This document shows positions 8,987-14,293 of a DNA stretch of 64,000 nt, piece by piece. The DNA is from Desulfarculaceae bacterium (lineage in GTDB: Bacteria > Desulfobacterota > Desulfocorpusculales > Desulfocorpusculum). Each line of letters opens with the position of its first letter. Position 1 is the stretch's first letter. The position numbers and the translations under genes were made by a program. A model generated the notes under the pieces. The model did not search any database. It saw nothing but the letters and a program-made list of their open reading frames with translations, and was not told the DNA's origin. The stretch is taken from the NCBI GenBank assembly GCA_037443445.1, contig JBBIOJ010000003.1, positions 11,816 through 75,815 of the forward strand, given 5' to 3'.

Positions 8987-10212
8987 GGAAAGCTCTCCAC
9001 CTCCACCCAATCTCCGCTATAGAGCCCTTCGCAAAGAGGATCGATCCGGATCAATCCATCCGCCCTGGAAAGATTCCCTATGAGACCCGAGGAGCCCAGC
9101 AAGGGACGGGCCCAGAGTTCCCCTTGCCTTTGTTCCAGGGCCACCCTCACATAATCCTCTCTGCCCTGGGCTGAGGCCAGGTTTCTGGTGAGCCTTGCCC
9201 GAAAAGGTCTGGGTCTGTTGATGTAGCTTCTTCCGCAAATTCTGTCCAACAAGGGCCTTCCCAAGAGATGGAGGATCACCAGAGCTGAGACCGGATGTCC
9301 AGGGAGTCCCAAGAAGGGTTTCCCACCCACCTCTGCCACCAAAGTGGGTTTGCCCGGCCTCACTGCAAGACCATGGGCCAGCACCTCAGCACCCGGCAAT
9401 GCCTGGAGGGCCTCCATGAGAAAATCCCTGGTACCGACTGAGCTTCCCCCCGAGACTATTACCGCATCGGCCGTCTCCAGGGCTTCCCTGAGGGCTTTGG
9501 AGAGCTGCTCCAGCCGGTCCGGAATTATTCCCATGGGGAGGGCTATTGCGCCCTCCAGGTTCACCCAGGAACAAACGGAGACCCCATTTACATCCCTTAC
9601 CTGGCCCGGAGCAGGCTCCGTGTGGACAGGCACCACTTCGTCCCCAGTGGAAAACACGGCCACCGATGGCTTTCGGTAAACCCAAAGCCTGGTTGTCCCC
9701 AGAGCCCCCAGGATCCCCAGATCCTGGGGCCTCAAGCTCCATCCCGAGGGCAGCACCTCCTGGCCTGCAGAGACGTCCTCCCCGGGTCTCACCACGTTCT
9801 CCCATGGAGCCACGCTCCTGTACACCTCCAGGGTTTCCGAGTCCAGTTGCTCTGCATGCTCTATCATGACAACAGAGTCCGCGCCTTCCGGCAGCATGGC
9901 GCCGGTGGCCACCCGCACGGCCTCCGAACCCCTCAGGGTCATCTGGGCGGGCTCCCCCATGCGCACTTCGCCCACTAGGCGAAGCAGGGCAGGCAGCCCC
10001 TCGCTGGCTCCAAAAGTGTCTTGGGCCTTTACAGCAAAGCCGTCCATGGTAGCACGCGGGAAACCCGGCAGGTCTTCCTTCGCCACCACCGTCCTGGAAA
10101 GCACTCTGCCCAGGGCATTCCAAAGCTCCACTTCCTCTTCCCCCGCCGGGGAAAATCTTTGGAATTCGGCCACCACCTCCTGGCGGCTTCTCACCCTGAA
10201 GAAGCGGATCAC
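8983..10212 (-). CDS. moeA: Molybdopterin molybdo/tungsto-transferase MoeA (second paralog)
   Basis: 409 aa with full-length MoeA similarity (ATMDGFAVKAQD, GAMLPEGADSVVMIE, GGSSVGTRD). In tandem with the MoeA-PBP fusion gene. Confidence 0.85.
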   Translation of the reverse strand: MIRFFRVRSRQEVVAEFQRFSPAGEEEVELWNALGRVLSRTVVAKEDLPGFPRATMDGFAVKAQDTFGASEGLPALLRLVGEVRMGEPAQMTLRGSEAVRVATGAMLPEGADSVVMIEHAEQLDSETLEVYRSVAPWENVVRPGEDVSAGQEVLPSGWSLRPQDLGILGALGTTRLWVYRKPSVAVFSTGDEVVPVHTEPAPGQVRDVNGVSVCSWVNLEGAIALPMGIIPDRLEQLSKALREALETADAVIVSGGSSVGTRDFLMEALQALPGAEVLAHGLAVRPGKPTLVAEVGGKPFLGLPGHPVSALVILHLLGRPLLDRICGRSYINRPRPFRARLTRNLASAQGREDYVRVALEQRQGELWARPLLGSSGLIGNLSRADGLIRIDPLCEGLYSGDWVEVESFP

Positions 10213-10829
10213 CCTCTGCCTCCTTGTCCCATCAGATCCAGGGGAAGCCCCTTGGCCTCCATGGAATCCCAGTACTCCTTGGCCACCACCTCCACTCCGG
10301 GAAGCGGACCGGAGCCCAGGATTTCCCTCGTGATCTGGTGCACCAGGGCTTCTTCCCTGGCCCTATCCAAAGGATAGGCCTCGAAGCTTTGCAGGAAAAG
10401 GCTGAATCTAACTATGTGCACCAGCTCGTGGGTGACCACATAGACCAGCAGAGGGAAAAGTGAGAGCTCTCTATCCCTGTCCAGGGCCCTTAGTATCACG
10501 TGATCCTGGAGGCATATCTTGTAGAAATCGAAATGAGAACTGCGAAGGCCGCTTTCGGCGGGTTGCCCCAGGTATCGGATTATCTGGGCAAAAGCCTCAT
10601 CGGTCAGCTCACCTTCCTTGAGCTTGGCCGCTGTTTGGATGTCGTAACGGCATCTTCTCCATTGGCTGGTGGAGTACTTGAAATGCTCGCTGGTCAGCTC
10701 TTCGGCCACGGCAACGGCCTCGTCCACCACTGCCAGGTGCTCCTGGTCGAAGCTCCGCCGCAGGATGCCTACAGATCCCAACCCCCAGCTCCATGGGTCC
10801 ACTTGCGAAGAGCGGATCACACAATTCAA
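10209..10829 (-). CDS. Hypothetical protein with HExxH motif (possible zinc-dependent hydrolase), co-operonic with moeA
   Basis: 206-aa ORF overlapping the moeA start by 4 nt. Contains VVTHELVHIV (HExxH). No confident family assignment. Confidence 0.5.
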   Translation of the reverse strand: MNCVIRSSQVDPWSWGLGSVGILRRSFDQEHLAVVDEAVAVAEELTSEHFKYSTSQWRRCRYDIQTAAKLKEGELTDEAFAQIIRYLGQPAESGLRSSHFDFYKICLQDHVILRALDRDRELSLFPLLVYVVTHELVHIVRFSLFLQSFEAYPLDRAREEALVHQITREILGSGPLPGVEVVAKEYWDSMEAKGLPLDLMGQGGRG

Positions 10830-11057: not shown

Positions 11058-11744
11058 CTAATCAGGACTTCGAAGCAGCATCCTCACTGGTCGTAGGTCT
11101 TTCAACAGGCTGGCCAGGCTGAGCCCTCTTGGATCCTGGACCAGGTGAACCCATCCCCCCACATGCACCAATACGCGGTATCTGCCTGCCATGTTCCTGA
11201 TCCTGCAGGCCATAAACATCTCCCGCAAGAGCCCCCTCTTGTACACCCAGGGGGGAGTTATTCCGACTTCTTTCAGGAGACCTCCTGAATCCAGACAGCG
11301 GCGGGCCCTGGCATAGGCTGCCAGAATCCTCTCTCCCAGGTCGGCTTGTTCCCTGGAGAGAAGAAGGGCCAAGTTTTCCCTGGTCAGGATTTCCTTTTCG
11401 TACCCTGGGAGCTCCTCTCTGGAGACCCAGTTGAGGTCTGTGAGGTGCAAAGGAATCCCATGGCTGGAAGCATAATCCCGACAGGCCAGATACTCGAAGG
11501 GGAGCCCCAGGGCCTGGACCATGAGCCTTACCTCGGGGTGAGCCTTGGCTGCGGGGGGGAACTCCTCCAGAAGTGAGTCCAGCTTGCCCAGGAGCTTGGG
11601 GCCCATCTGCTCTCTCCAGAGCAGCCCCAGGGGGCTCAGCTCCACGCCCAAGGCCTGGGGCCGGAGCTTCTCAAGGCTCTTGCAGAGGTAAATGGCCCCC
11701 TGAGGGTCCCTGTGGACAACCCCCAGCAGTACAAGAAGCCCCAT
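11058..11744 (-). CDS. TraB/GumN-family protein (Tiki/TraB/GumN superfamily)
   Basis: N-terminal LLGVVHRD...ALGVELSP and C-terminal VLVHVGGWVHLV resemble TraB-family signature regions (GTAH...VELC / GxxH). 228 aa. Confidence 0.55.
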   Translation of the reverse strand: MGLLVLLGVVHRDPQGAIYLCKSLEKLRPQALGVELSPLGLLWREQMGPKLLGKLDSLLEEFPPAAKAHPEVRLMVQALGLPFEYLACRDYASSHGIPLHLTDLNWVSREELPGYEKEILTRENLALLLSREQADLGERILAAYARARRCLDSGGLLKEVGITPPWVYKRGLLREMFMACRIRNMAGRYRVLVHVGGWVHLVQDPRGLSLASLLKDLRPVRMLLRSPD

Positions 11745-12591: not shown

Positions 12592-12860
12592 CTTTTCTCA
12601 TCCCCCTTCTCAGGCTCAATACCGAAGCAGATACTCTCGGCCAAAGATAAGACCTTTAAGGAATGCCCAATCCTACTGGTGAGGGACAGCAGGTGTCAAG
12701 AAGACCTGCCTTCTGGGAAGGGTCCCTGCCCCTGATACTCCCAAGGCAGGAGGCTTCTTTTCCTGATTAGTCCGGAAAAGCTTTGGGGGACACAGATCCC
12801 AAGGGGGAAACCCCGGAGGGATCTGACACGTCAAAAAACTGGGGGCAGGGAGGTGAAAAA

Positions 12861-13427
12861 ATGAGGGCAAAGATACCCGGCATAGGCGGGGTGCTCCTGG
12901 GTTTTTCCCTGGCCGTGCTTTCTGGTTGTTCCCATGTGATCTCTCAAGAGATGAGAGCCAAGGCCAGGGAGGATCTGGAGTTCACCATGGTCTTGGCAGA
13001 CCCTGAGCGTTATCATGGAGAGACGGTCATCTGGGGGGGTGTGATCCTGGAGACCGAGAACAAGGCAGAGGGCACTACACTGGTGATTCTGGAGACCCCT
13101 TTGGATTGGGAAGGGGCTCCCAGGCACGCGGAGTTCTCCAGGGGCAGATTCTTGGCCCGTACCGGCAGTTTCTTGGACCAGGCAGTATACAGCCAGGGTC
13201 GCAAGGTAACCGTGGCCGGTGAGGTGGCTGGGAGGGAAGTGCGAAGGGTTGGGGACCTGTCTTACGGGTACCCGGTGGTGTGGATCCGCGAGATACATCT
13301 TTGGCGGGAAACCCCAGGAGCATGGGTTCCAGCCCATCCCTGGGGGCCGTACTGGTATTGGGGAGGTCCGTATTGGTACTGGGATTGGTGGTGGCCCGGG
13401 TGGAGGCCACATTGGCGCAGGCGTTGA
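12861..13427 (+). CDS. slp: Slp-family outer-membrane lipoprotein with Trp/Tyr-rich C-terminal repeat tail
   Basis: ATG at 12861 preceded by GGAGGTG. Lipoprotein signal with lipobox LSGC. Slp-like core (PERYHGETVIWGGVILETENKAEGTTLVILETPLD...). C-terminus GPYWYWGGPYWYWDWWWPGWRPHWRRR is encoded by a near-perfect tandem DNA repeat. Confidence 0.7.
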   Translation: MRAKIPGIGGVLLGFSLAVLSGCSHVISQEMRAKAREDLEFTMVLADPERYHGETVIWGGVILETENKAEGTTLVILETPLDWEGAPRHAEFSRGRFLARTGSFLDQAVYSQGRKVTVAGEVAGREVRRVGDLSYGYPVVWIREIHLWRETPGAWVPAHPWGPYWYWGGPYWYWDWWWPGWRPHWRRR

Positions 13428-13432
13428 GAAGG

Positions 13433-14293
13433 ATGGGGATCCTGTGCAGGGCGGGCCTCATCTTCTGGTTTTGCCTTTTTGGAGTGGCCCGGGAGACTTG
13501 GGCTGACTGGCCCGAGCAGCCTTTGATAGAGAGGCTCACAGACGGCTCCAGGATGGGCCTCAGCAGGCTCACCTCGGAACTCAGGGGAAGTCCATTTGTG
13601 CTGGTGGGGGAGCTTCATGAGGAGCCCGAGCACCACAGGGCTCAGTTGATGCTCATCAGGGCGCTTTGGGAGGCCAAGGTGCCCTTGGCCATAGGCATGG
13701 AGATGTTTCGACAGGATGCACAGGAAGCCCTGGACAGCTGGACCAGGGGGGGGCTCTCCGAGGAGGAAATGGAGCAGATCTTTGGGCAGAACTGGGCCGA
13801 GACCTCCTGGCTCCTGTACCGGGACATACTGCTCTTTGCCAGGGAGAAATCCATTCCTGTCTTGGGGTTGAACCTGCCCAGGGAGATCACCCAGAAGGTG
13901 GCCTCCGGGGGTTATGCGAGCCTGCCTGAGGAGATGAAAAAGCACTGGGGGGAGGTGTCCTGCGACCTCCAGGAGCCCTACAGGAGCTTTGTGCACTGGG
14001 CCTTTGAGGCCCACGGGGACAGCAAGGAGGAGAGTTGGGAGAATTTCTGCCAGGCCCAGATCCTCTGGGATACGGCCATGGCCGTAAGACTTCTGGATTA
14101 TCGGGAAGCAAATCCCCAGACCACCATCGTGGTCCTGACAGGGGTGGGACATGCCTGGATGCACGGGATCCCGCAAAGGATAACCCAGCGCTCATACTTG
14201 CTCTGCAGGGTGATCCTCCCGGATCTGCAAGGAAGACTAAAGCAGGGTAAACTGGGGACCGAGGACGCCGACTATCTTTGGCTTAGGTATTGA
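13433..14293 (+). CDS. ChaN-family (Cofac_haem_bdg/DUF399) protein, Tiki/TraB/GumN superfamily, secreted
   Basis: ATG at 13433, 5 nt after the slp stop. Signal-peptide-like N-terminus. Motifs LVGELHEEPEHHRAQL, LAIGMEMF, NWAETSWLLYRDILLFARE, PVLGLNLPREI and GVGHAW match ChaN-family conserved blocks. Confidence 0.7.
   Translation: MGILCRAGLIFWFCLFGVARETWADWPEQPLIERLTDGSRMGLSRLTSELRGSPFVLVGELHEEPEHHRAQLMLIRALWEAKVPLAIGMEMFRQDAQEALDSWTRGGLSEEEMEQIFGQNWAETSWLLYRDILLFAREKSIPVLGLNLPREITQKVASGGYASLPEEMKKHWGEVSCDLQEPYRSFVHWAFEAHGDSKEESWENFCQAQILWDTAMAVRLLDYREANPQTTIVVLTGVGHAWMHGIPQRITQRSYLLCRVILPDLQGRLKQGKLGTEDADYLWLRY

Follow-up and report, generated by a model that had tools for sequence, protein, structure and literature searches.

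The Slp-family lipoprotein encoded in a 64-kb stretch of DNA from a Desulfarculaceae bacterium (contig JBBIOJ010000003.1, assembly GCA_037443445.1; this whole stretch is hereafter called the window) ends in a Trp-rich tail of 40 residues. The first-pass annotation, an earlier reading of the same DNA, regarded such an aromatic-rich, Arg-terminated tail as unusual for Slp. Comparison across the family mainly corrects this view. As far as sequences can tell, a tail rich in aromatic residues, Gly and Pro is a hallmark of the whole Slp family, and the tail in the window is the local form of this trait: it is neither an oddity nor an artefact, and it is no unstable repeat. The hallmark is an empirical trait from this analysis and not a published definition. 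What appears special, and only to the clade of the window, is the replacement of most of the usual Tyr by Trp and the Arg cluster at the end. We tentatively favor the reading that the tail is a second, non-covalent anchor at the membrane interface.

Aromatic tails across the Slp family

A profile search of 1.84 billion representatives detected 3,248 Slp cluster representatives at E ≤ 1e-3. In almost every homolog, the conserved motif E-[IL]-H-L-W is followed by a stretch rich in Tyr, Trp, Gly and Pro. Examples of such tails are YYYPYPYYPYYPYVGWYGPYWGYGPDWGYGPWWGY and PYYYDPWYWGPPYPWRPWGRPYW, and they are seen in Desulfobacterota, Planctomycetota, Nitrospirota and Gammaproteobacteria.

The tail was measured in 150 diverse aligned members as the first 40 residues after W148. 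The median aromatic fraction (W+Y+F) is 0.35 in the tail (interquartile range 0.275–0.419) and 0.089 in the core, and the median Pro+Gly fraction is 0.275 and 0.149, respectively. At least 25% of the tail residues are aromatic in 125 of the 150 members. By this empirical measure the window tail, 37.5% aromatic (0.375) and 30% Pro+Gly (0.30), is a family tail. Together with the tails of Escherichia coli Slp and YeaY, these counts contradict the idea that aromatic richness is unusual for Slp. The other part of that claim stands for the clade of the window. The Trp fraction of the window tail is 0.275, the top of the 150 (family median 0.092 in the tail, 0.016 in the core), while its Tyr fraction is 0.10 (0.20 in the tail, 0.042 in the core). 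A second count of 166 members, independent of the alignment, again places this clade first for Trp. A basic cluster, defined as at least three Lys or Arg in the last five residues, is found in 10 of the 150 tails; the last residue is aromatic in 49, and 17 have an acidic extension.

The commonest tail 4-mer is GPYW (30/150), and the commonest 3-mers are PYW, GPY and YPY. The repeat unit of the window tail, GPYWYW, is thus built from the favorite words of the family. It is the composition of the tail, rather than its exact sequence, that appears to be conserved across Slp proteins. Drift from Tyr to Trp driven by GC content was considered and rejected: W/(W+Y) of the tail does not correlate with the GC content of the locus (Spearman rho −0.09, p = 0.71, n = 19 loci).

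Two sub-branches have other endings. One (proteins P0034, P0041, P0043, P0049 and P0058; loci L022 and L023) is without an aromatic tail and has a short, Gly-rich hydrophobic end with a final Phe or Leu, such as FQFGIGVGL, FQFGVGVGF, HLGIGFGVTF or FHFGLGVGKTF. In the other (P0020, P0024, P0038, P0040, P0044, P0045, P0050, P0052 and P0054; L014), the aromatic segment is followed by a long acidic extension rich in Glu, Gly and His, e.g., GGEFEEGEHHEGGGEHHEGGGEREGGGGHEGGDRR. This extension looks like a low-complexity tail that binds metals or protons.

The Slp protein of the window and its tail

The gene in the window almost certainly encodes a typical Slp-family lipoprotein, predicted to be in the outer membrane, of a Desulfarculaceae-like bacterium. 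The assignment is based on the Pfam score, the lipobox, the core motif and the tail composition. The match to PF03843 (Slp) has E = 8e-45 and 152.4 bits against a gathering score of 22.5. Positions 1–152 of the 153 in the profile are aligned to residues 20–177 of the 188 in the protein; the alignment reaching residue 177 means that the curated family model itself runs into the Trp-rich tail. The score for NCBIfam TIGR00752 (Slp), 75.8 bits (E = 2.6e-21), is below the curated cut-off of 88.45. The protein is still a clear homolog, and TIGR00752 appears to be tuned to closer relatives of E. coli Slp. Being above the Pfam threshold and below the TIGR00752 cut-off, the protein might receive only a generic name in NCBI annotation.

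The N-terminus, MRAKIPGIGGVLLGFSLAVLSGC, is a lipoprotein signal peptide. Cys23 of its lipobox is conserved in at least 90% of the homologs in both the 40- and the 150-sequence alignment, and no residue for inner-membrane retention is present at +2. From the absence of Asp at this position, we infer targeting to the outer membrane by the E. coli rule (PMC9543262).

The 27-residue C-terminus quoted in the first-pass annotation, GPYWYWGGPYWYWDWWWPGWRPHWRRR, is exact. Its count of four Tyr is right, but it contains nine Trp rather than 11, and 11 Trp are reached only across the last 39 residues. Among other 27-residue stretches in the six frames of the window, none has more than seven Trp.

The homologs show that the tail is a genuine protein sequence. 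A homology search with the window Slp returned 58 proteins, and the tail is present in homologs, the opposite of the absence that the first-pass annotation had held to count against it. Proteins P0002–P0006, 73–79% identical and derived from other samples and other sequence collections, end in PWGPYWYWGGPYWYW[DE]WWWP.W..HWRRR or minor variants. L009, the nearest species-representative genome (a metagenome-assembled genome of an uncultured Desulfarculaceae, 75% identical), has the same ending. These homologs encode the same tail with synonymous differences. Across the last 45 codons, comparison with L001 and L009 reveals 14 synonymous and eight non-synonymous changes, which indicates purifying selection on the tail in the Slp reading frame. 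In relatives at 68–70% identity, the tail region is reshaped by small indels (GPYWYWWDPYWPWWPGWG, 185 aa).

One gene call among the close relatives has an unusual start. P0002 (L001, 4001–4711) is called as 236 aa with an N-terminal extension of 48 residues, which is absent from all other members. Translation most likely begins instead at the internal Met directly ahead of the signal peptide.

Predicted structure and a possible second membrane anchor

AlphaFold2 was run with a 40-sequence alignment and then with a 150-sequence alignment. In both, the core (residues ~24–150) is predicted with a predicted local distance difference test score (pLDDT) of 90–98 and consists of short helices followed by five strands. 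As in the family, this OB-fold-like core ends in the conserved motif Y-x-Y-P ... E-I-H-L-W. The pLDDT falls below 50 from about residue 155–164 on, where secondary structure is absent, and the tail stays without structure even with the deeper alignment. The models thus predict the OB-fold core confidently and give the tail of about 40 residues no fixed structure. A sequence search for relatives with solved structures found none; the best match (E = 0.17) is irrelevant.

It can be speculated that the tail works as a second, non-covalent anchor. Trp and Tyr would insert their side chains at the interface of the outer membrane, and the arginines at the end would form pairs with the phosphates of lipids. 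With both ends attached, one by the N-terminal lipid and the other by the C-terminal aromatic tail, the OB domain would lie flat on the membrane.

The interfacial free energies on the Wimley-White scale are consistent with this mechanism. The last 27 residues score −13.9 kcal/mol, and the best 27-mer within the tail −18.3, against a family median of −8.9. The background of 23,042 27-mers from the 58 longest open reading frames of the window has a mean of +5.6 and a minimum of −10.4. The antimicrobial peptides indolicidin and tritrpticin score −6.2 and −4.2 on the same scale. A segment predicted without structure is as expected if it folds on binding. In a survey by coarse-grained simulation, E. 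coli Slp and YeaY are among the ~25% of lipoproteins with a reproducible membrane interface (PMC7139219). The Gly-rich hydrophobic tails (FQFGIGVGF type) are of another membrane-seeking composition, which is at least consistent with an anchor.

Several points weigh against an anchor. The interfacial free energy reflects composition only, and any aromatic-rich peptide scores well. The acidic extensions, rich in Glu and Asp, that end 17 of the 150 members would be repelled by an anionic membrane. With basic ends in only 10 of 150 tails, an Arg end cannot count as a trait of the family. The simulation survey does not state which residues touch the membrane (PMC7139219). Literature searches on Slp structure, the Slp tail, PF03843 and Trp-rich lipoprotein tails found nothing relevant. 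Besides, a low pLDDT would fit a segment that binds a partner, associates with itself or binds peptidoglycan equally well.

An anchor at the membrane interface therefore remains a tentative reading of the tail, somewhat short of probable. Taken jointly, the identity of the protein and the anchor mechanism come close to an even balance without reaching it, and this estimate mainly reflects the mechanism. The general form of the proposal is possible but rather unlikely: the aromatic Tyr/Trp-Gly-Pro tail could be an unrecognized module of the whole Slp family, a second anchor without structure that fastens the OB domain to the outer membrane, with the clade of the window as its Trp extreme, similar to indolicidin.

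Possible protein docking or glycan binding

The tail might instead contact proteins. It could dock to an outer-membrane protein or to the beta-barrel assembly machinery by strand addition, or stick to itself through contacts between Tyr or Trp and Arg. A low pLDDT in a monomer is typical of segments that become ordered only in complexes, and the 49 tails with an aromatic last residue end as the beta-signals of outer-membrane proteins do. The richness in Tyr/Trp, Gly and Arg is like that of sticker-type low-complexity regions. The window tail, however, ends in RRR and not in an aromatic residue, conservation of composition instead of position would be unusual for a specific docking motif, and among the loci examined no partner gene is consistently adjacent. 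We consider protein docking or self-association unlikely on balance.

Binding of peptidoglycan or another glycan by stacking of aromatic residues on sugar rings, which would link the outer membrane with the cell wall, is improbable. Aromatic-rich surfaces are the usual platforms for sugar binding, and a lipoprotein in the inner leaflet of the outer membrane would face the periplasm. However, Pfam finds only PF03843 in this protein and no peptidoglycan- or carbohydrate-binding domain, the tail is predicted without a fold, and literature searches gave no support.

The ChaN-family neighbor

As the first-pass annotation noted, slp is directly upstream of a ChaN-family gene, which is confirmed by its match to PF04187; NCBIfam models did not match this downstream gene. 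Between the slp stop and the ChaN ATG there are 5 nt, GAAGG at 13,428–13,432. The gap is as reported, and the spacing is compatible with the coupled translation proposed there. The short-chain dehydrogenase gene (minus strand) is upstream of the pair, and sfsA, a gene for a tetratricopeptide repeat (TPR)/thioredoxin-like protein and a nitroreductase-family gene (minus strand) are downstream.

It is conceivable that the tail works with this neighbor, for example by stacking on heme or another planar cofactor handled by ChaN. The 5-nt gap suggests co-translation, and six related loci retain the Slp–ChaN pair, to as low as about 59% identity of Slp. However, the whole gene order is common to these six loci (L001–L005 and L009; Slp 59–78% identical), namely short-chain dehydrogenase / Slp / ChaN / SfsA / nitroreductase, and simple inheritance of this synteny may account for the pairing. 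None of 17 other Slp loci has a ChaN gene in flanks of 2.5–3 kb or less, yet most of them encode aromatic tails. Among the 17 is a second Desulfarculaceae genome (56% identity). ChaN is also missing beside slp and yeaY of E. coli. The pairing is thus specific to one lineage and inseparable from inherited synteny, and it gives little functional information on the tail. A family-wide functional link between Slp and ChaN is rejected, since the pairing is seen only within one syntenic clade, and a joint function of the tail with ChaN is very unlikely.

The junction of the two genes differs among the loci. The start of ChaN and the stop of Slp overlap as TGATG in L003 and meet as TTGA in L005; the gap is 5 nt in the window and 20 nt in L002. 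In these four loci ChaN begins at the slp stop or close to it, as coupled translation would allow. In L001 (4657–4711) and L009, the codons for W-E-W-W-W-P of Slp read G-M-V-V-A in the +2 frame, which gives an in-frame ATG for the ChaN reading frame. L001 has no canonical start nearer the Slp stop, and there gene callers let ChaN overlap the Slp tail by 55 nt. In L001 and L009, the DNA of the tail may hence be dual-coding. At the corresponding position the window (13,373–13,432) has TTG, with Asp of Slp in place of Glu; it has a good ATG at 13,433 followed by a normal signal peptide.

Upstream of the short-chain dehydrogenase gene, the window contains two minus-strand open reading frames without a Pfam match, 11,058–11,744 and 10,209–10,829. 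Judged by position and size only, L001 and L002, and in part L003–L005, have counterparts there: open reading frames of similar size and without a recorded Pfam match. The two in the window look like uncharacterized conserved proteins.

An improbable sorting signal, and the DNA repeat

A C-terminal sorting signal of the exosortase or rhombosortase type consists of a motif, a hydrophobic stretch and an Arg cluster, and is cleaved off. The RRR end after a non-polar stretch is superficially like such a signal. An NCBIfam scan that includes the sorting-signal models, however, matches only Slp at E ≤ 0.01. Pro or Gly every few residues excludes a transmembrane helix, and a basic end is confined to the 10 tails counted above. 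A signal of the PEP-CTERM or GlyGly-CTERM type is rejected on these three grounds, and sorting is a highly improbable role.

The tail DNA contains a short repeat, which the first-pass annotation described as a near-perfect tandem duplication. The repeat exists, with two 16-nt cores, CCGTACTGGTATTGGG (from 13,347) and CCGTATTGGTACTGGG (from 13,368), that are identical at 14 of 16 positions with a period of 21 nt. It is not a near-perfect tandem array. The full 21-nt units are identical at only 15 of 21 positions, Tandem Repeats Finder reports no rows even at a score of 30, and a general repeat search finds only two-copy families of 12–13 nt. In the 64-kb window, 16-mers repeated at 14/16 or better within 30 nt occur at only three loci, which indicates that the repeat is not due to chance. 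Only one codon exists for Trp, and the units carry their two Tyr codons in opposite order (TAC TAT and TAT TAC). The DNA likeness is therefore no more than a twofold peptide repeat GPYWYW requires, and the DNA repeat is fully explained as a footprint of the peptide repeat.

Variation in repeat number, which had been proposed for checking, is absent among close relatives: the window, L001 and L009 all have two GPYWYW units. The more distant L002 keeps two units, the first of which is degenerate (APYWYG). The null result of Tandem Repeats Finder and the stable unit number rule out a slippage-prone tandem repeat or contingency locus. The probability is negligible that the tail results from an assembly error or a frameshift, or that it is a repeat prone to slippage and of variable copy number. 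An out-of-frame reading of a G-rich repeat can yield Trp-rich sequence, and a short repeat of 21-nt period is indeed present. However, the same tail, with synonymous changes, is found in independent assemblies of other samples, which in practice rules out the artefact; close relatives carry two units, the Tyr codons differ between the units, and no tandem array is detected.

Another of the three short-range repeats is inside slp itself. It also has a period of 21 nt (13,143–13,158, GGCAGATTCTTGGCCC, and 13,164–13,179, GGCAGTTTCTTGGACC; 14/16 identical) and encodes G-R-F-L-A and G-S-F-L-D.

The features of slp and its downstream neighbor are summarized in Table 1.

Table 1. Positions of the slp-family gene, its parts and the adjacent ChaN-family gene in the window.
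Feature	Position	Strand	Description
Shine-Dalgarno-like GGAGG	12849..12853	+	7 nt ahead of the slp ATG; read from the sequence
slp-family lipoprotein gene	12861..13427	+	start codon ATG at 12861, stop at 13427; 188 aa plus stop; from translation and PF03843
Signal peptide and lipobox L-S-G-C	12861..12929	+	predicted lipidated Cys23, codon 12927-12929; Ser at +2
Globular core, residues 24-148	12930..13304	+	predicted short helices, then five-stranded OB-fold barrel ending in E-I-H-L-W
C-terminal aromatic/Gly/Pro-rich tail, residues 149-188	13305..13424	+	RETPGAWVPAHPWGPYWYWGGPYWYWDWWWPGWRPHWRRR; 11 Trp, 4 Tyr, 5 Arg
Peptide repeat GPYWYW-G-GPYWYW	13344..13382	+	DNA cores 13347-13362 and 13368-13383
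ChaN-family gene (PF04187)	13433..14293	+	N-terminal signal peptide; E = 3.9e-55, 187.6 bits vs 27.7

Implications for the Slp family

A published description of the Slp family speaks of "no proven function" and of "little known about the mechanism" (PMC9543262). One report assigns a role in adhesion to Slp of E. coli O157 (PMC6561548). Only for E. coli Slp is it known that the protein is in the outer membrane and is induced by starvation, stationary phase or acid (PMC6561548, PMC9543262). Slp proteins are common, multiply in acidophiles, and are linked to survival of acid and starvation; the cluster representatives of the family number more than 3,000 and come from many phyla. No paper mentioning an aromatic tail of the Slp family was found in the literature searched. 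The remaining interest is thus in a family-wide trait that is apparently undiscussed there, and in the clade of the window as its Trp extreme. Should the tail prove to be a second membrane anchor or a docking element, the Slp family would gain its first mechanistic handle. An anchor module could then underlie the barrier role proposed for the family under acid or starvation stress. The Trp-rich variant of the tail would be suited to binding tests based on fluorescence.

Comparison with known systems

The closest known systems are E. coli Slp (b3506, 188 aa) and its paralog YeaY (b1806, 193 aa). The window Slp is also 188 aa long and shares with both the lipobox Cys and an OB-type core ending in W-H-L or H-L-W. 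The E. coli proteins likewise have a C-terminal segment rich in aromatic residues, Gly and Pro; that of Slp is YNLWDYGYGAFWPEPGWGAPYY, and the C-terminal sequence of the K-12 protein is …VWHLREVVNTTYNLWDYGYGAFWPEPGWGAPYYTNAVSQVTPELVK. They differ in the amount of Trp and in the ending. The window tail has 11 Trp in 40 residues, whereas E. coli Slp has four in its last 45. In the window the aromatic tail extends to the C-terminus, with RRR as its last residues, whereas in E. coli Slp and YeaY the final residues are a short stretch without aromatic side chains. The neighboring genes are different as well: slp of E. coli is beside dctR in the acid fitness island, and slp of the window is beside ChaN.

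In composition, the window tail resembles the 'extended' antimicrobial peptides indolicidin (ILPWKWPWWPWRR) and tritrpticin (VRRFPWWWPFLRR). All are rich in Trp, Pro and Arg, with words such as WWWP, PGW and a terminal W-R-R-R. Trp-rich, Pro-containing and Arg-ended peptides of the indolicidin type lack helix and sheet; they bind micelles through a core of Trp and Pro and have their charged ends at the head groups (PMC12654255). In interfacial free energy, the window tail reaches about twice the value of indolicidin. The resemblance is an analogy only and not homology, as the window tail is longer and is also rich in Tyr and Gly. It is the end of the bacterium's own lipoprotein, whereas indolicidin and tritrpticin are secreted peptides of host defense.

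Clustered Trp and Tyr at the bilayer interface near a membrane anchor are also known from the membrane-proximal segments of viral fusion proteins, such as the membrane-proximal external region of HIV gp41, and from the aromatic girdles of outer-membrane proteins. These segments form helices or belong to a beta-barrel, next to a transmembrane element. In the window Slp, by contrast, Pro and Gly break up the aromatic segment, and the lipid anchor is at the other end of the protein.

The core invites comparison with other OB-fold proteins, such as the bacterial single-stranded DNA-binding protein (SSB), which has a disordered C-terminal tail, and the periplasmic BOF/YgiW type (PDB 3f1z), although the sequence identity is only 10–19%. 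The tails of SSB are acidic and bind partner proteins, and a role with nucleic acids is not plausible for a periplasmic lipoprotein.

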